Origin: an uncultured virus (IMG/VR IMGVR_UViG_3300047539_000004)
Taxonomy: Duplodnaviria; Heunggongvirae; Uroviricota; Caudoviricetes
Reading direction: 5' to 3' (one strand)
Virus record (IMG/VR): IMGVR_UViG_3300047539_000004
Length of the DNA stretch: 37,360 nt
In this document: positions 1 to 27,909 of the stretch, in pieces
Layout: each line of letters begins with the position of its first letter
Position numbering within the stretch: the first letter of the stretch is position 1
The notes under the pieces: generated by a model
The model's input: the letters and a program-made list of their open reading frames with translations, nothing else
The model's database searches: none
What the model was told of the DNA's origin: nothing
Program-made: the position numbers and the translations under genes

Positions 1-336
1 TGTATCTCCCGCAAATGCGTTAGAACCGCCGCCTGTAATTGTTCCGGTGAATACTGAATGAATTCCATCAGTAGAAGCAGCAACTGAAGTCAGCACTAAT
101 ACACCGACTGAAGAAGCAGCAACTGAAGTTAGAGCCAATGCTGAACCTGTGTCAACCACCGCGCCTGAAACATCGGCAACTACGGGGTCAAGTTGAAAAG
201 TCTCTGGGTAACCACCCACACCAGTCAATGACAACTTAACACCATTGTACCCCGGAGTTGTTTTGCCGGGATGAATGTTGCCAGTTGACAAAATCTGTGC
301 TGCTACGCCAAGACCTGTAGTAGAATTAAATGCCAT
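1..336 (-). CDS. Virion structural protein downstream of the capsid gene (partial, runs off the window)
   Basis: ATG at 336 after GGAGA; open frame to the window edge (MAFNSTTGLGVAAQILSTGNIHPG...); rich in Gly/Ser/Thr/Val with a repeated LTSVAAS; lies right after the capsid gene. Confidence 0.7.
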   Translation of the reverse strand, partial: MAFNSTTGLGVAAQILSTGNIHPGKTTPGYNGVKLSLTGVGGYPETFQLDPVVADVSGAVVDTGSALALTSVAASSVGVLVLTSVAASTDGIHSVFTGTITGGGSNAFAGDT

Positions 337-394
337 TTATTTTCTCCATAGACGTCAAAGGAGAGTTTTTAGGCTCTCCTTCGATCAATTTGAA

Positions 395-3300
395 TTAGCT
401 GATTGCGCTTGCGGCATCAATCTCACGGATTCTGATTGTTGTATCCTATTTGTTATCAATAACTTGCGTCATTGAGTTAGGTCATTTCTGCCTAACTCTC
501 ATGGTTTTTGTTCCCATGAGAACGGACTATCGCATCACCTTTCGGTGCCCTCTCACTTAGTCTCTCACGCTGCCTTTCGGCTTGCGCCCTGTTAGCCATT
601 TCAGCTTCCAAGTCAATCAGAGTGGGTTTATTACTCGCCCCAATACAATGTTTAGGGCCGAGCGAAGTTGTAAAATGAACTCTATCAATTTGTTATAATA
701 TTTCCCAAATCTTTGGCTAAAGTATATATTTCTTCAAGCCTTTGTAAAACAACTTCTTGTGGAAGCTGTTTACCGTATGCGCGAGTCATGCTAGCTTCCA
801 TCCAAGCTTTTAAAGTAAAGCTAGATTTGCTAGTCTGACATGATAAGAATCTGGTTTCTTCGTGTGTAGTGCAGCAAGGAACTAAGTTACCTTTTACATG
901 GCCTATAGAGGAATTTAATCTATCTAATCCCCATACTTTACCATCTTCAGGCTTTCGTCCACAATAAGCACACACTCTAGGGTTTCCTTCACTATCTAAA
1001 TAGTAAGGAATAGCTTCAACAGGACTTGTAAATCCAAATTCCCGTTTTTCAAGTTTATCAGTCCACTTCATACTAGCGTAACGTTTCCGTATGCTCTTAT
1101 AATAACCGTTCGACATGGATTTAGCTTTTAAAACGCCTTCCATACCTTCCCGGTTAAAGTGAACTAGTTTACCTTGTTTTCTCCATTTCGCAGCCCATTC
1201 TTGAATAGTACCGATAGTTACGCCGGTTCTAGTTTGAATCTCTTTTTGACTACGATTTTTAGAAAGAAGTTCGAATACTTTATCTTCAGTTTCTTTATCA
1301 ATTTTTATCATGCATACCTTAGGAGATATTAGATTGAGCATTTCTGTCAATCTCTTATAGTTTTATTCCTATAAGATCGGACTATTACTTCAGCCGTTTG
1401 GCTGTCTTCTTGTTTAGTCTCTCACGGCGAAAAGAATTTGTCAAGTCTTTTCTTCCGCCTCGTTGCCGTTTCAGGTTTCGAGTCGATTAAAGAAGATTAC
1501 TGATATCCTGTTTAAAGGGTCAGCCCATATATGATATTCTTATATCATGTAATGTTTAGGAAGTCCATCCGGGGATTAGCCCTTCGGGATCGGCAACTGT
1601 CGGTTCCTGTTATTTAGTTGCCTACAACTTCTGAGAACGCCAAACCTTTTAAAATCAATAACTTACCAGCGTTCTGAACGATATTGCACTTGATGTTGCT
1701 CCATTCACCGTCACCAAAACCTGTATCGCCTTGCGCACCGAGTTTGATAGAGAAAATACCATCACGCCCGAAGCTTGGATTGTTACTCGCTTTTTATAGC
1801 GGAGCAAGTCATTTCTGCTTGCTTCTTGGAGTTAAATTCTGTTATTAATTTGCAATGCTCTAGGAATGTAGTTTGTGAGTAGTTACTTTTGAATGAATTG
1901 CACACTCCGCAGCAAGCTACTGTATTCTCAGTTTGATAACCTTTTGCATTGTCTACTCTATCTACACCGTTATAGGTGTAACTATTTTGACTACCATAAC
2001 ATTTAGGTTTCAAAATCTGATAAGGTTCTTTACCACAATAAAAGCAAGTTTGTTTTGTAAGAATTTGAAATTCTTCAAAACTCAAAGAAAAACTGTATCC
2101 ACGTTTCTTTGCCAGAGACTTGTAAGTACCCCACAATGAACGTACCAGAGTTGTTTCATTTTTAGGTATGAGTCCAAGCTGATACCTGCAACCACAACTT
2201 TTACAGTGACCGTTCCGTAACGATGTTCCGGTCACCACAATGGTCTTTCCGCAGTCACACTGGCATATCCAACGTGCTCTATTTTTCTTTGAAATGCTTC
2301 TTTTTATGACTAAAAGACTGCTAAATCTTTTTCCCAATAAATCGTCTAATGGGCACTTTCCGCAGCTTTTGGTTGAACCGCCTACAAGATTGCTGTAAAA
2401 GAGTATGTGCTCATTTCCACAATCACACATACATTTCCACCTTGTTGAACCGTTTACAGTTCCTTCACAAGATATCGCAACAAGGCGACCGAATCGCCTG
2501 CCAACGAGGTTGGTCTTCATTTTTTCTCCAAGAACGGACTATCGCATCTTCCAAAGTCTTATTATACCACAATAAGAATAGGAAGTCAAATCGTTTAGTC
2601 TCTACTGCTGCACGGTTGCCCTGCTTGCAGTCTGTTCCCATTTCAGGGTTCAGCTTGATTAGATTTGATTTTCCGTATCAGCTTTCGTCTGATAGGACAC
2701 CTTAGTTGATGTAGGTACGTAGGGCTGTTAGACCAGTCACTGACTTGTAGTTAGGTGTCTGGGTAACTTGGTTTGTTTGGAAGAAACGTACACCTGAAGA
2801 TGGGAACTCAATCATTTCTGCAAGGTCCACAGAAATCAAATCTTCCATCTTTGCTTGACCTACTGGTGTATGCTTCAAAATGTCGATAACTGAATCATTG
2901 CTGTTGTCAGCAAGAACGTCACCGATTGCAAATGGGTGAATTACGCCAGCAAAAGTCTTGCTTGCTTCGTCAAAGGGGCGAACTGAACGACCTGCAAGGC
3001 TCTGTACTGAGTTACGAATCTGGTTAAGGCTCAGAGTTGTAAACGCAGTTAGTGATGTTGCACCTAGCTGTGTTAGAACACTTGCATCAACTGCATTCGC
3101 ACCGTCTGCTGTTGCACGAACTAGACCGCTTAGTGACTCACCAAGGCGATATGAAAGTTCGCGTGCTACATTCTCTACAGTGTTATCAATTGCGGTTGCA
3201 AGTGATAGTGAACTGAAATTAGCATAGTCCTAAGTTGTTTTGGGGTTGCTGTGTCACCACAGGGCCGCTCTCATGGTCACCCATGAGTTCAGACTCTATC

Positions 3301-4525
3301 TTCACAGAATTGTCTGTGCCTGACGTATTAGTCGTTACGGATTCACCGCGATTAAGGGCCTTATTTTTATCATAGAATTCTTTGCGCTTGGATGGGTTTT
3401 GCTCCCGTTCACAACGAATAAATTCTAAGGCGTTTAATGCCTGTTCGCGTTTAATGAGTAAATATGGAAGGATTCCTAGTAGAAAAACTTCTTGCGCCTT
3501 CACACCGCCTTTCGTAAACCACTGAAATACTGGTCTTCCGGGGTTAAGTGCTTGCTTTTTTTTATAAACAACACCGCCAAAATTCTCAACAAAAAAGTCC
3601 ATTAGTTTTTGTGATGTATTGGCAACTTGTATACGAAGCATATAGGCTTTGTATGTAGTTCCGGCGCTGGTTACATGATTTGCTGCGCCAATGCTAATGC
3701 AGCCCTCTGCATCAACCATAGCGGCAGCATAAATCCAGTTTTCTTTATTACTCATTTGTGTCTTTCCTCGGTATTGTCTGTATTATAACAGAGTTTCACC
3801 GATATAGTCAAGTTTTGATTAATGAGAACGCCAACTAATTGATACTAAAGCACTTAGCGTACTCTCCGATGGTTGCTGTCGTAGTTAAAACGTTAATTGA
3901 AATGCCACTACCAACTGTACCCTCAGTTGTCTGAGTAGTATTAGCTGCAAAAGGTACGTACATGAAAAGTTCGTACTGATTACCGCTCTTAGTTGGTAAA
4001 TCCAATCTCTCAGAACATGCTACGAAAGGTGTTTGTGCTTTCAGATTCTCTCTGAATTTCTTCAAATTTGTTACGTGTTTTCACACGGATTAGGCATTTC
4101 TGCTAATCTCATACAGTTGTTTTTCCTGTATGTTCGGACTATCGCATCACTTAAATGAGTCTACATAAGCTTTTTATCTTCAACAGTTATGCCATATTTA
4201 CGCATAAGATGTTGCGGCATATCTCGATGAGCTTCTCTATACTTTTTAGCATATTGACGCATCTTATCTCGATGTGCAGCCCTATAGTTTTTATGATATT
4301 CTTTTAGTTGTTCTGGTGTTCTCATTATTTGTGTTCTCTCGCTTAGTCTCTCACGCTGCCATTACGCTTGCGCCCTGTTAGCAGATATAATACTCATTAT
4401 ATCATATTTCAGCTTCCAAGTCAATAAGAGAGAATTTAACCACGACAAGATTATTTATCGTAGTAACGTACTGTTGACTGAGGTAAATTAGACTGACTAT
4501 TACTTGATGGACTATAACCTGCCAT
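395..4525 (-). CDS. Major capsid protein, N4-gp56-like, 344 aa; exons 4525-4457, 4062-3856, 3229-2709, 1773-1668, 1606-1558, 685-654, 445-395
   Basis: Exons sum to 1035 nt in one open frame: MAGYSPSS...VRYYD|KKFRENLKAQ...IGEYA|DYANFSSL...GVIHPF...LRTYI|FGRDG...VQNA|EPTVADPEGLIPGWTS|YRVHFTTSLGP|DTTIRIREIDAASAIS*. Every junction follows the group I rule (exon ends in U, intron ends in G). Located after portal and scaffold. Confidence 0.88.
446..653 (-). ncRNA. Group I intron 6 (208 nt, no ORF)
   Basis: P1: CUCGGCCCU pairs with GGGGCGAG; core motifs GCAGCGUGAGAGACUAAG and GAUGCGAUAGUCC; ends UAACAAAUAG. Confidence 0.92.
685..1311 (-). CDS. Intron-encoded HNH-type homing endonuclease with N-terminal HTH-like region
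   Basis: CAYCG...GLDRLNSSIGHVKGNLVPCC; likely start ATG 1311 after TAAGGT; the TGA stop overlaps the 3' splice site. Confidence 0.75.
   Translation of the reverse strand: MIKIDKETEDKVFELLSKNRSQKEIQTRTGVTIGTIQEWAAKWRKQGKLVHFNREGMEGVLKAKSMSNGYYKSIRKRYASMKWTDKLEKREFGFTSPVEAIPYYLDSEGNPRVCAYCGRKPEDGKVWGLDRLNSSIGHVKGNLVPCCTTHEETRFLSCQTSKSSFTLKAWMEASMTRAYGKQLPQEVVLQRLEEIYTLAKDLGNIITN
686..1557 (-). ncRNA. Group I intron 5 (872 nt) with endonuclease ORF in its 3' region
   Basis: Core GCCGUGAGAGACUAAAC ... GAAGUAAUAGUCCG; ends AUAACAAAUUG; removal rebuilds a T|AT Tyr codon. Its P1 looks short (CCU with GGG). Confidence 0.85.
1607..1667 (-). other. 61-nt core-less group I-like mini-intron (intervening sequence 4)
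   Basis: Contains an in-frame TAA and shifts the frame; guide GGUUUGGCGUUCU pairs over 13 nt with ligated exons AGAACGCU|GAACC; small hairpin AGUUG-UAGG-CAACU; ends AUAACAG; no catalytic core. Confidence 0.8.
1783..2520 (-). CDS. Intron-encoded HNH homing endonuclease
   Basis: Two N-terminal GxRFxxL...WxCxCDCG...KSCG repeats; C-terminal CFYCG...GVDRVDNAKGY...CCGVCNSFK; GGAGA RBS. Confidence 0.88.
   Translation of the reverse strand: MKTNLVGRRFGRLVAISCEGTVNGSTRWKCMCDCGNEHILFYSNLVGGSTKSCGKCPLDDLLGKRFSSLLVIKRSISKKNRARWICQCDCGKTIVVTGTSLRNGHCKSCGCRYQLGLIPKNETTLVRSLWGTYKSLAKKRGYSFSLSFEEFQILTKQTCFYCGKEPYQILKPKCYGSQNSYTYNGVDRVDNAKGYQTENTVACCGVCNSFKSNYSQTTFLEHCKLITEFNSKKQAEMTCSAIKSE
2561..2589 (-). 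promoter_or_regulatory. Sigma70-type promoter inside intron 3
   Basis: TTGACT-17-TATAAT with an extended TG motif, 40 nt upstream of the HNH ATG. Confidence 0.75.
3219..3755 (-). CDS. Single-motif LAGLIDADG homing endonuclease
   Basis: WIYAAAMVDAEGCISI motif and ILPYLLIKREQA helix; the ORF continues through the intron core and 11 nt into exon 3. Confidence 0.88.
   Translation of the reverse strand: MSNKENWIYAAAMVDAEGCISIGAANHVTSAGTTYKAYMLRIQVANTSQKLMDFFVENFGGVVYKKKQALNPGRPVFQWFTKGGVKAQEVFLLGILPYLLIKREQALNALEFIRCEREQNPSKRKEFYDKNKALNRGESVTTNTSGTDNSVKIESELMGDHESGPVVTQQPQNNLGLC
3230..3855 (-). ncRNA. Group I intron 2 (626 nt) with LAGLIDADG ORF
   Basis: P1: GAGUACGCU with GGCGUUCUC; core CCGUAACGACUAAU ... 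AAGAUAGAGUC; ends AAACAACUUAG. Confidence 0.9.
3782..3811 (-). promoter_or_regulatory. Sigma70-type promoter inside intron 2
   Basis: TTGACT-18-TATAAT with an extended TG motif, followed by GAGGA and ATG 3755. Confidence 0.72.
4161..4325 (-). pseudogene. Truncated endonuclease VII-like homing endonuclease (54 aa) in intron 1
   Basis: MRTPEQLKEYHKNYRAAHRDK...HLMRKYGITVEDKKLM*; the xxKYGIT segment resembles the region just before the EndoVII nuclease domain, which is absent here. Confidence 0.6.
4396..4424 (-). promoter_or_regulatory. Sigma70-type promoter inside intron 1
   Basis: TTGACT-17-TATAAT with an extended TG motif. Confidence 0.72.
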
Positions 4526-4608
4526 TTTAGTTTCCTGTTATATGGAAACCCGTATTATTTTCCTCCAAAACAAGTACAAGTTTCTGTCCTTGTACGTCAA
4601 TTACATCA

Positions 4609-4700
4609 GTTAGTAATCCGACTAACCTTCAATTGCCTTCAACTAAGACTTCAGTTAAAGTTACCTCACGCATTGGTGGTTCAACAGTAATCCGACTGTT
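4609..4700 (-). promoter_or_regulatory. Twin hairpins in the capsid gene leader
   Basis: AACAGU-CGGAUU-ACUGUU (4683-4700) and GUUAGU-CGGAUU-ACUAAC (4609-4626). Confidence 0.55.
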
Positions 4701-4704
4701 TCAC

Positions 4705-5154
4705 CTATAAATCTGACACTGGACGCGCACTTTTATACATGCACAACCCATGTCTACCGTTTCCGTACATGTTCTCGTCAACAAGCGTCACCCTATACCC
4801 CAAATCGAAGTATAGTTTTTGTGCCGGATTGTTGGCCTCTACCTGAAGCCAAAATAGGCTATTCTCAGGCTTTTGAAACTCTCCAAAAGTCTTTTCAAAC
4901 ACTTCGAAAAGCTTTGTGGCGATTCCTTGCTTTCTATGTGTATACAATACTGCTATATTATAGACATATGGTAATTCATGTTTAATCTTACCAATTAAAA
5001 ATCCAACTACTGTTCCGTTGTCTTCTGCTACCCAAGTTTGCCCTTTCTCTGCCTGTGACATAAGTAACAGTTCAGGAGTGGGCCATTCGTGTGATAATTG
5101 GTCGATTATAAAGATTTGCTTAAAGTCTTCGTCTGTATACTTGCGTATAAGCAT
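4705..5154 (-). CDS. GNAT (RimI-like) acetyltransferase
   Basis: IAVLYTHRKQGIAT acetyl-CoA motif A; LQVEANNPAQKLYFDLGY. Confidence 0.88.
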   Translation of the reverse strand: MLIRKYTDEDFKQIFIIDQLSHEWPTPELLLMSQAEKGQTWVAEDNGTVVGFLIGKIKHELPYVYNIAVLYTHRKQGIATKLFEVFEKTFGEFQKPENSLFWLQVEANNPAQKLYFDLGYRVTLVDENMYGNGRHGLCMYKSARPVSDL

Positions 5155-5155
5155 G

Positions 5156-6145
5156 TTACTGCCTTGGCTTTCTCGCGTCGGCCTCTAGCTTGTCTACCTT
5201 CTTACCGAAAGTGGGGTCTGTCAGAAGCAATCTCTTGTAATCATCGGATGGCATCGCATTGAGTGCAGCCAGTCCCGTTAAGACAGTCTTTGAACCGTCT
5301 GGTTGACGTAGCTCGTATACAATGTCGCTTCCGGCTCTAGGAGATGTGCCTACGTCTGAAGCACTCGCTCTGGTTAGCCCTGTGGCAACCCTTACGGCTA
5401 TCGGCTCGGTTACAGGAGTTGGTATAATGACTTCTACAGGAACTACAGGAACTACCGCAACCGGCTCTACAACAACTGGCACAGGTTCGTGGCGAGTTGG
5501 TGCTTCTACGATTGCGTCATGTAGTTTGAGCGTGTCATACGCCTTCTGAAAGTTACTTTTTACAGGAGCTAGATCGTATCTCAGCATCCAAGAAGTCATA
5601 GCTTCCCAGTTCTCTTTGCATTTAAAGTATTTGGGATTGTCAGCTACAAACGAATCGGCCTCAACCTTTGCGCGAAGTCTGATATTGTCTTGCTGTACAT
5701 CCCTGATTGTCTCTCCAAACTGCTTTAGCGACCCGCCAATAGAAGCTTCTAACAGTGTCGAAGTGGCCTCAAGTGCTGTAGTCGGGTCTAATAGCTTACG
5801 TGAAATGTCATAACGTTCATCATTCGTCAGTTCACGCGGCTTAAATTCGATTGGTGTAGGGAATCTTGGTGCCTCTTCTGGAATCGTTTCATTGTCCACA
5901 ATTCCCATTCTGTTCTTGCGTGTCTCACTTCTCAACTTACGGATAAGCAATACGTTCTGCTCTCGTAGTTTAGTTGCTAACTCTTCGTGAGTTCTATATT
6001 TGATTACCTGCAAGCCGCCTATCGGTCCCCCATTTTCATCTTCCGGCTGAAATTCGTACTTCAGTTCGGGCAACTCTGGTATAACTTCTACTACAGGAAC
6101 TTCTACAGGAACTACCTGCTCAATAACTTCGCTTACTTCACTCAT
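5156..6145 (-). CDS. Probable capsid scaffolding protein
   Basis: Sits between portal and capsid genes; acidic N-terminus, helical middle, Pro/Val linker. Confidence 0.6.
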   Translation of the reverse strand: MSEVSEVIEQVVPVEVPVVEVIPELPELKYEFQPEDENGGPIGGLQVIKYRTHEELATKLREQNVLLIRKLRSETRKNRMGIVDNETIPEEAPRFPTPIEFKPRELTNDERYDISRKLLDPTTALEATSTLLEASIGGSLKQFGETIRDVQQDNIRLRAKVEADSFVADNPKYFKCKENWEAMTSWMLRYDLAPVKSNFQKAYDTLKLHDAIVEAPTRHEPVPVVVEPVAVVPVVPVEVIIPTPVTEPIAVRVATGLTRASASDVGTSPRAGSDIVYELRQPDGSKTVLTGLAALNAMPSDDYKRLLLTDPTFGKKVDKLEADARKPRQ

Positions 6146-15034: not shown

Positions 15035-15109
<75 letters not shown>

Positions 15110-23829: not shown

Positions 23830-24235
23830 CTAGCTGTAAGATAACGCTCGTGAAAAGACGTTATTATGATAGGCGCACAACACGCGGGTTCAAATCCCGC
23901 CGCGTCCACCACAGATAGCATTGGGTGTTTCGGAAGACCCTATAGCTGAACCGACAGCGTGCTATCTGTTGTGGGCGCGATCTGGGAATCGACTGGCGCA
24001 TTGTTGGGATAACGACGAGCAGGGACTGATGCTCACCTTAACGAGAGTCAAACACAGATGCGAACGATAGTTCAAATCTTATGGAACAGCGCTATCTTGC
24101 ACTTGGGAATGCCTTAGCGGGTGGACTCAGTGTTGATGGTCTTCAGAATACCGAAGTTGCTATTCCAGAACTAATTGCAGCCTAAAAACTGTGGATACGC
24201 GCTGCCCTTTTGCGTGGGAACAGAAAAAGGGGCAA
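23830..24235 (+). ncRNA. ssrA: Circularly permuted (two-piece) tmRNA; outer ends approximate
   Basis: T-arm and CGCGTCC-ACCA end at 23911, upstream of the 5' acceptor strand GGGCGCG (23973-23979); G3:U70 pair; tag frame 24060-24185 starts AND and ends LIAA*. Confidence 0.88.
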
Positions 24236-24437: not shown

Positions 24438-24515
24438 CGGTGTATAGCTCAGTCTGGACAGAGCATTCCGTTTGGGGCGGAAGGGCCAGAGGTTCGAATC
24501 CTTTTACGCCGACCA
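24438..24515 (+). tRNA. tRNA-Pro(TGG)
   Basis: Acceptor CGGTGTA/TACGCCG-ACCA; anticodon arm TTCCG-TTTGGGG-CGGAA. Confidence 0.92.
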
Positions 24516-25352: not shown

Positions 25353-25429
25353 GAGAGATTAGTTCAGCCCGGTAGAACGTCTGCCCTACACGCAGAATGT
25401 CACAGGTTCAAATCCTGTATTTCTCACCA
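25353..25429 (+). tRNA. tRNA-Val(TAC)
   Basis: Acceptor GAGAGAT/ATTTCTC-ACCA; anticodon arm TCTGC-CCTACAC-GCAGA. Confidence 0.85.
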
Positions 25430-25470: not shown

Positions 25471-25554
25471 GCTCGAATGGTGGAACCGCAGACACAATGC
25501 GTTTAGAGCGCATCGCCGAAAGGCATGGGGGTTCAAATCCCTCTTCGAGTACCA
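25471..25554 (+). tRNA. tRNA-Leu(TAG)
   Basis: Acceptor GCTCGAA/TTCGAGT-ACCA; anticodon arm ATGCG-TTTAGAG-CGCAT; long variable arm. Confidence 0.88.
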
Positions 25555-27821: not shown

Positions 27822-27909
27822 GGGTAGTTGGGTGAGCGGCTGATACCAGTTGTCTTGAAAACAACCGTTCCGAGAGGAACCGAGAGTTCGAATCTTTCAC
27901 TACCCGCCA
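27822..27909 (+). tRNA. tRNA-Ser(TGA)
   Basis: Acceptor GGGTAGT/ACTACCC-GCCA; anticodon arm GTTGT-CTTGAAA-ACAAC; long variable arm. Confidence 0.9.

Follow-up and report, generated by a model that had tools for sequence, protein, structure and literature searches.

A spliced 61-nt group I-type mini-intron without a catalytic core in the capsid gene of an uncultured soil phage, and a candidate helper intron downstream

The capsid gene and its 61-nt insertion

The window analysed here is a stretch of 37,360 nucleotides (nt) of DNA from an uncultured virus of the Caudoviricetes (IMG/VR record IMGVR_UViG_3300047539_000004), and its minus strand carries a tailed soil phage's gene for the major capsid (head) protein, the largest exon of which shares 84% protein identity with gp6 (343 amino acids, aa; intronless gene) of the Tunturiibacter phage Tunturi_3. 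Aligning the window to the intronless Tunturi_3 capsid gene set the exon limits and divides the gene into seven exons and six insertions, of which five are full group I introns and one is a 61-nt mini-intron (Table 1). It can be said with high confidence that this smallest insertion is a real, spliced, coreless group I-type mini-intron, precisely removed from the messenger RNA (mRNA) in peat communities. The reading of the locus as a whole, which is moderately favoured, is that this coreless intron owes the identity of its guide with that of intron 2 (I2) to the similarity of the two insertion sites, and that it most likely uses the core of the downstream intron I6.

The 5' boundary of the mini-intron lies directly after the U that ends exon 4 at 1668, a position named as a cleavage point in the first-pass annotation and found here to be the last exon base, while the 3' end is a terminal G at 1607. 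The exon end and the internal guide, AGAACGCU/GGCGUUCU, form a P1 helix of 8 base pairs (bp) when the terminal G.U is counted, and P1 and P10 together amount to 13 bp, a sum reached by 0 of 2000 shuffles. A compensatory variant of P10 is found in the relative L036, which has GGCUU/GAGCC where the window has GGUUU/GAACC. Just 27 nt of the element lie beyond P1. Neither the type-A covariance model described below nor Rfam gave a match to a catalytic core (P3-P9, P7 guanosine site) in 1607-1667, and no internal hairpin, P7-like guanosine site or 3'-end motif is common to the seven variants at this site.

Exon 5 is in frame solely when the 61 nt are taken out, and 17 of its 17 codons give the same residues as in Tunturi_3, with synonymous differences alone. 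The stretch is contained in 20 public sequencing runs, six of which are peat metatranscriptomes, and splice joints were examined at contig level in RNA runs X15, X16 and X17, from three studies, and in DNA run X1. The RNA joint 1605->1667, which skips 61 nt with an ambiguity of 1 nt, is present in X15, X16 and X17 at depths of 253, 153 and 385, and no joint skipping 61 nt occurs in X1. The same three RNA runs also show joints for I1, I3, I5 and I6, and X1 shows none of any kind. One X17 contig of 764 nt contains the pieces 380-445, 1667-1772 and 2708-3160 with 0 differing letters in the pieces, and the numbering between the first two leaves room for exons 6 and 5.

It is hardly credible that the 61 nt are left unspliced, either being bypassed by the ribosome or appearing to be absent through joined RNA contigs that come from an intronless DNA variant. 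The model for the former is the 50-nt gap of T4 gene 60, which was suggested to be a degenerate group I intron and is yet bypassed by the ribosome (PMC5009743); that gap stays in the mRNA, whereas the 61-nt insert is absent from the RNA contigs. No matched take-off and landing codons flank the insert, and no stop follows the take-off codon. All three RNA runs lack the 61 nt in contigs whose exons are identical to the window, the DNA run lacks the joint, and intron-bearing RNA contigs are 3-10 times shallower than exon contigs. Intronless relatives differ by at least 10% in sequence.

Two apparent features of the mini-intron were rejected. The 1-nt ambiguity of the joint allows spliceosomal-like ends, GUAAGU...ACAG, which are regarded as a coincidence, variants at the same site having other starts such as AGAAAU, AUACAG and AAAAAG. 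The second feature, a hairpin that spans the 3' splice site (GGCAAC/GUUGCC), is present in the window and in its fold and is not conserved in L036.

The full introns were recognised through alignment, covariation and a covariance model built for this analysis; Rfam reports no group I intron in the whole window at the gathering score, nor at 1-6000 with E<=10. A type-A core is common to I1, I3, I5 and I6, and I2 is of type B, with a different conserved core. An alignment of 16 type-A introns that lack an open reading frame (ORF) shows compensatory changes at 30 of 38 consensus pairs, in P3, P4, P6, P8, P9 and P9.1, together with an invariant GACUA...UAGUC able to form P7; type-A introns, I6 included, also show P1, P10 and omega-G. 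The covariance model derived from this alignment matches I1, I3, I5 and I6 alone in the 37-kb window, plus a weak match on the 3' half of I2.

Table 1. Features of the capsid gene in the window, with tether and partner strands in relatives (reference nt, reference nucleotide numbering)
Feature	Position	Strand	Remarks
E1	4525->4457	-	Limits from Tunturi_3 alignment
Intron I1	4456->4063	-	Type A; 54-aa ORF in P8; RNA joint skips 394
E2	4062->3856	-	Ends ...GAGTACGCT at 3856
Intron 2 (I2)	3855->3230	-	Type B; LAGLIDADG-like ORF 3755->3219
Shared 12-mer in intron 2	3823..3834	-	Guide GGCGUUCUC pairs with exon-2 end GAGUACGCU (3864->3856), U.U mismatch; P10 UAGUU/GACUA
E3	3229->2709	-	Limits from Tunturi_3 alignment
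Intron I3	2708->1774	-	Type A; 245-aa ORF in P9; RNA joint skips 935
E4	1773->1668	-	Ends ...AGAACGCT at 1668
P1 5' strand of mini-intron	1668..1675	-	Exon-4 end AGAACGCU; splice-site U pairs with G
Mini-intron	1667->1607	-	61 nt; from Tunturi_3 alignment and RNA contigs
P10 strand GGUUU	1642..1646	-	Pairs with exon-5 start GAACC, 1606->1602
Shared 12-mer in mini-intron	1632..1643	-	UU (last 2 nt of P10 strand), GGCGUUCU (P1 guide) and CA (unpaired linker)
Tether strand	1623..1631	-	GAAGUUGUA, 2 nt beyond P1 guide
E5	1606->1558	-	EPTVADPEGLIPGWTS and first 2 nt of Y codon; joined to exons 4 and 6 in RNA contigs
Intron I5	1557->686	-	Type-A core (144.3 bits), then HNH-like ORF up to 3' splice site; RNA joint skips 872
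E6	685->654	-	Limits from Tunturi_3 alignment
Tether partner	664..672	-	UACAACUUC in exon 6, 1 nt upstream of I6 P1 5' strand (662->654)
Intron I6	653->446	-	ORF-less type A, 208 nt; covariance model R1 211.8 bits; spliced in 3/3 RNA runs
E7	445->395	-	Limits from Tunturi_3 alignment
L036 tether / partner	site 900 (reference nt)		GAGGUUGUG / CACAACCUC
L204 tether / partner	site 900 (reference nt)		GAAGUUGUG / CACAACUUC
L220 tether / partner	site 900 (reference nt)		UGUUUGGU / GCCAGACA
L009, L024 tether / partner	site 906 (reference nt)		UAACUAGUC / GACUAGUUA, adjoining P1 of intron at 957
L014 tether / partner	site 921 (reference nt)		GUUAGUUGU / ACAACUAGC; serine codon switch compensated
L038 tether / partner	site 921 (reference nt)		AAGUUGUA / UACAACUU

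Several further observations concern the full introns and the rest of the window. The spliced joint of I2 is found in X17 alone, and the main contigs of X15 and X16 still contain I2 at a depth like that of the exons. I2 may be the slowest intron to splice; a variant in X17 has 415 nt of the I2 ORF (3345-3759) replaced by 13 nt. One X15 RNA contig goes back 932 nt, from 2703 to 1772, which fits a circular I3 RNA closed a few bases within its 5' end; intron circles short of a few 5' bases are typical of group I introns. A joint seen only in X16, 1603->4088, at depth 16 and with a side of 23 nt, leads from exon 5 into I1; it is too weak for interpretation and may come from a mis-reaction or a chimera. 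The HNH-like ORF of I5 (685-1316, minus strand) has a TGA stop that straddles the 3' junction, its G being the last intron base, and the P8-loop ORF of I1 (4161-4325, minus strand) encodes a basic protein of 54 aa in a family without assignment. Elsewhere the window carries a permuted transfer-messenger RNA at 23846-24185 on the plus strand (Rfam RF04321, 58.2 bits) and five transfer RNAs, at 15038-15109 on the minus strand and at 24438-24512, 25353-25426, 25471-25551 and 27822-27906 on the plus strand. The nearest record, G001 (5.7 kb), has no match to the capsid-gene region.

A family of short insertions in related capsid genes

The comparison used 80 of at least 220 capsid-gene relatives found in viral contigs. 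Many of the 80 are intronless; in others, introns occupy more than 20 positions. At 13 distinct loci and seven sites there are short insertions of 34-94 nt, giving 14 elements with the window, the near-duplicates L010 and L064 having been left out of the set. In all 14 a U precedes the 5' splice site, the last base is G, and a contiguous P1 (6-13 bp) and P10 (4-8 bp) are fitted to the element's own exons, the sum being matched by 0-3 of 2000 shuffles. Homologous copies differ by compensatory changes: GAACC/GGUUU against GAGCC/GGCUU, GAAGGCU/AGCCUUU against GAAGGUU/AACCUUU, and CCGGAU/GUCCGG against CUGGUU/GACCAG. The shortest relatives measure 34-39 nt, and the guide takes up 12-13 nt of this.

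Five further variants at the site of the window's mini-intron came from pattern scans (L204, L220, L228, L230 and L236), all with the terminal G, together with near-copies of the window (L225) and of L036 (L226); because the guide sequence was required, these scans are uninformative on guide conservation. A first gapped pattern scan was too loose, returning 118 loci of which none encodes the capsid protein, and an exact 37-nt mini-intron search of viral contigs gave no match.

Among L002-L081, L204, L220 and L236 the capsid gene is an intron hot spot, with two intron types that occur with or without endonuclease ORFs, and L220 has two mini-introns. The mini-introns at reference nt 60 (L045:4850-4889 and L063:4827-4867) have a topology unlike that of the C-terminal ones: a 9-nt tail segment, UCGAUUGCG, pairs with their own 5' exon just upstream of P1, and there is no downstream-exon pairing.

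The guide shared with intron 2

The first-pass annotation had drawn attention to a 12-base sequence common to the mini-intron and intron 2, to the ACGCU that ends both upstream exons, and to an intron 2 guide that fits the end of exon 4 without mismatch and its own exon with a U-U mismatch. All three statements are borne out by an exact-copy search and by the exon ends at 1668 and 3856. In the window TTGGCGTTCTCA has exactly two copies, both on the minus strand, and six further places match it with two mismatches. The mismatch between the guide GGCGUUCU and the exon-2 end GAGUACGCU falls at -6, and the same guide with the same U.U mismatch recurs at the intron-2 site of L035, L041 and L063/L064. 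The repeat alone is not unusual because the window holds 267 distinct repeated 12-mers, against about 51 in shuffles; the aspect that is not due to chance is that both copies stand at the guide position, 21-26 nt inside the insertion, and pair with both flanking exons.

The two insertion sites, AGUACGCU before GA for intron 2 and AGAACGCU before GA for the mini-intron, differ at one of ten positions, as they do in Tunturi_3, with the consensus AG[A/U]ACGCU upstream and GA downstream. Pairing sets 10 of the 12 guide bases, UU to the GA of the 3' exon and GGCGUUCU to the 5' exon, the exception being the intron-2 U that stands opposite a U. Near-equal insertion sites therefore entail near-equal guides, and the identity is no sign that intron 2 services the mini-intron; very probably it was forced by the sites. 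The match is mostly of this forced kind, and the last two bases vary among the seven variants: they are CA in the window and L228, UA in L230 and L036, UU in L204, and UG in L220 and L236, so that CA is found in two of seven variants.

The annotation's proposal that the mini-intron may go back to an element resembling intron 2, transferred to a similar site, has in its favour the similarity of the sites and the keeping of the guides; against it, nothing is shared beyond the guide. Under this proposal one element moved between the sites, by guide-directed reverse splicing or by endonuclease-directed ectopic insertion, and the copy at 1668 then lost its core, a history that would be compatible with any helper and that we regard as possible but on balance doubtful. 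The sites agree at nine of ten positions, a level reached by 129 of 5000 codon shuffles, and the four distinct introns at the intron-2 site have all kept GGCGUUCUC, a guide that is perfect for the other site and leaves a U.U on their own. The end of the L204 mini-intron, ...UCCUAAAUG, resembles the type-B 3' motif CCUAAAC, and the mini-introns at reference nt 66 and 161 have a site and a guide in common with full introns of other relatives, from which it follows that core loss in place does occur. Against such a link, 10 of the 12 shared bases are dictated by pairing, and outside the guide the mini-intron and intron 2 have no similarity, the observed level being equalled by 219 of 300 shuffles for the P1 loop and 275 of 300 for the tail. 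In about 90 relatives no full-length intron was found at the mini-intron site, the seven variants have no 3'-end motif in common, and the U.U mismatch could be kept for function. Common ancestry of the two guides is possible.

The further suggestion that excised intron 2 is the helper ribozyme was not borne out. Whether excised or still in the precursor, intron 2 would act on the mini-intron either by accepting its P1 into the intron 2 core or by binding the end of exon 4 with its own guide in trans and cleaving at 1668. The 12-nt identical guides, the perfect 8-bp pairing of the intron 2 guide with the exon-4 end, the presence of both elements in one transcript and the abundance of intron 2 RNA in the RNA runs all speak for it. 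Its distribution does not: a same-site mini-intron accompanies an empty intron-2 site in L204, L220, L036/L226 and L228, and the expected co-occurrence fails, since among five lineages with a visible intron-2 site the window alone has both. The capsid gene of L204 has type-A introns alone and no type-B intron, and L009, L010, L024 and L038 carry other mini-introns with type-A introns alone. A guide acting in trans should also be outcompeted by the mini-intron's own intramolecular guide, and while the main contigs of X15 and X16 retain I2, other contigs of the same runs are already without the mini-intron. The mis-spliced exon 2-exon 5 products that had been anticipated are not listed among the joints of the RNA contigs, a weak point against this helper as contigs drop rare forms. 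A blastn search with intron 2 of the L204, L036, L038 and L009 records gave no match and was insensitive; it says little because the type-B intron of L036 itself was also missed. With the tether described below pointing instead to the exon of a type-A intron, I6, a helper role for intron 2 is not supported, and we consider it very improbable.

The tether to intron I6 and its proposed role

Beyond the P1 guide, the mini-intron carries a strand with a 9-bp Watson-Crick match to exon 6, close to the P1 of I6. Against the 32 nt of exon that precede the next type-A intron, the tether run was reached by 10 of 2000 shuffles in the window, and in relatives by 0 (L009), 1 (L024), 7 (L036), 12 (L014) and 30 (L038). 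Tether and partner change in a compensatory manner in L036 and L204, and the partner always abuts the P1 of the helper at a distance of 0-1 nt. In L220 the helper lies at reference nt 992 and not at 981, that is 11 nt further down, and the altered tail of its mini-intron abuts the P1 at the new place. In 10 of 10 constructs the minimum-energy fold has mini-P1, tether helix and helper-P1 one after the other, with linkers of 0-6 nt and 0-1 nt. A tether search over +-600 nt with G.U allowed was equalled by 25-90% of shuffles, and the search became informative once it was limited to spliced mRNA or to the exon before the next intron.

Distribution points in the same direction. Type-A cores in the 37-kb window are confined to the capsid gene. 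Wherever one of the 80 relatives has an ORF-less type-A intron at reference nt 957-999, a mini-intron stands 20-80 nt upstream of it, and contigs picked by the 5' end of the helper alone had a mini-intron in 11 of 11 cases, six of them new. In this sample helpers always come with a mini-intron, and C-terminal mini-introns always with a helper.

A second resemblance between the mini-intron and I6 was also noted: the 11-mer AAGTTATTGAT in the P1 loop of the mini-intron (1653-1663, minus strand) is identical to part of the 3' terminal hairpin of I6 (455-465, minus strand), which 2 of 300 shuffles equal, and in L230 both places read ACTGA and not ATTGA. This match and its joint change in L230 point either to another contact between the mini-intron and I6 or to copying.

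An element of this size might instead splice on its own, aided only by the fold of the surrounding exon RNA, as claimed for the 63-81 nt introns of Phialophora ribosomal DNA (rDNA). The 'degenerate' group I introns of fungal nuclear small-subunit rDNA (PaSSU of Phialophora americana, and those of Porpidia and Arthonia) are 56-81 nt long, possess P1, P7, P10 and a pairing between mid-intron and 3' exon, and need a long exon context in vitro (PMC3160393). Also reported for them are a P7 guanosine site with a bulged nucleotide, a terminal U and a restriction to one or two rDNA sites, and self-splicing is claimed (PMC3160393). The phage mini-intron is like them in its size class, in having the P10 strand inside the P1 loop region and in its tether GAAGUUGUA/UACAACUUC, which is formally a mid-intron/3'-exon pairing of the fungal type; the analogy does not imply homology. 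It is unlike them in lacking a visible P7, in ending in G, in lying in a protein-coding capsid gene, in occurring at no fewer than seven sites with a guide of its own at each, and in a pairing that lands by the P1 of a complete neighbouring ribozyme (PMC3160393). Autonomous splicing is judged improbable: the seven variants have no conserved P7-like guanosine site, the shortest relatives leave little beyond their guide, the tether lands beside the P1 of another intron and moves with that intron, and C-terminal mini-introns and helpers are found only together.

I6, or another type-A neighbour, is on these comparisons of sequence the somewhat probable helper in cis. The mini-intron keeps the substrate parts alone, namely a P1 with G.U at the 5' splice site, an adjacent P10 strand and a terminal G, and would leave catalysis to I6. 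The tether begins 2 nt beyond the mini-intron P1 and its partner ends 1 nt from the I6 P1, and therefore the bases of both P1 helices would meet at one junction, from which the joining strand of the helper would lead into the core. The P1 of the mini-intron could then dock into the active site of I6 in place of the I6 P1, and the I6 core would perform both steps on the mini-intron, using the P10 and the terminal G of the latter. Loss of the mini-intron would dissolve the tether, after which I6 would excise itself; more speculatively, the tether may hold back self-splicing of I6 until the mini-intron has gone.

A number of points weigh against assigning this role to I6. The tethers of L079 (6 bp, 81 of 2000 shuffles) and L073 (7 bp, 139 of 2000) are weak, that of L230 has one central mismatch, and the tether loop contains the 872-nt I5 in both the window and L230. 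Mini-introns at reference nt 60, 66 and 161 precede type-B introns and have no such tether, and the helper model does not cover all mini-introns because of these 5'-end elements. Co-occurrence could partly reflect linkage, mini-intron and helper being no more than 100 nt apart, and several of the new contigs selected by the helper are near-identical to each other. The RNA contigs show that the joined form exists and give neither kinetics, splicing order nor intermediates, and the DNA control is a single run.

Several known systems bear comparison with the proposed arrangement. Tandem group I introns with alternative splice-site use (PMC10136302) and engineered trans-acting ribozymes likewise have a core acting on a foreign P1, with exon skipping between neighbours; those cases involve two complete ribozymes or are artificial, whereas here one partner is coreless and both excisions must proceed without exon skipping. 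Coreless or mini group I introns of phages or bacteria did not come up in the literature search, and the word 'intron' is absent from the main text of the Tunturi phage paper. The group III introns of Euglena plastids and the psaA tscA system, introns or pieces of introns, have no catalytic domains and are thought to rely on RNA from other introns or genes. Like them, the phage mini-intron is streamlined and coreless, but they are derived from group II introns and use lariat chemistry, and the phage element is of group I type. To our knowledge a group I counterpart with a tether in cis has not been described so far.

We tentatively propose the term 'satellite' group I introns for a coreless class that would persist within an essential phage gene by hijacking, in cis, the ribozyme of a complete intron nearby, with a short tether placing the satellite P1 next to the helper P1 and one core carrying out two reactions in a fixed order. 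As tentatively, the guides of such elements would have been re-tuned to new sites, at least seven within one gene. That the helper is never seen without its satellite hints at mutual dependence.

The defining feature of group I introns is a ribozyme of their own, and a natural intron that has the substrate helices alone and is spliced in vivo in an essential phage gene indicates that catalysis can be outsourced in this class. Neither gene callers nor Rfam pick up the full introns or the mini-introns, and the capsid genes of this widespread group of soil phages will therefore be mis-annotated as fragments. The family also provides an experimental system, with short elements, natural constructs of less than 450 nt and built-in compensatory variants, in which the choice of a ribozyme between two P1 helices, the enforcement of splicing order and the origin of dependent introns can be addressed. 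If the proposal is true, satellite introns would parallel, within group I, the route that led from group II introns to degenerate ones that a shared catalytic RNA serves.

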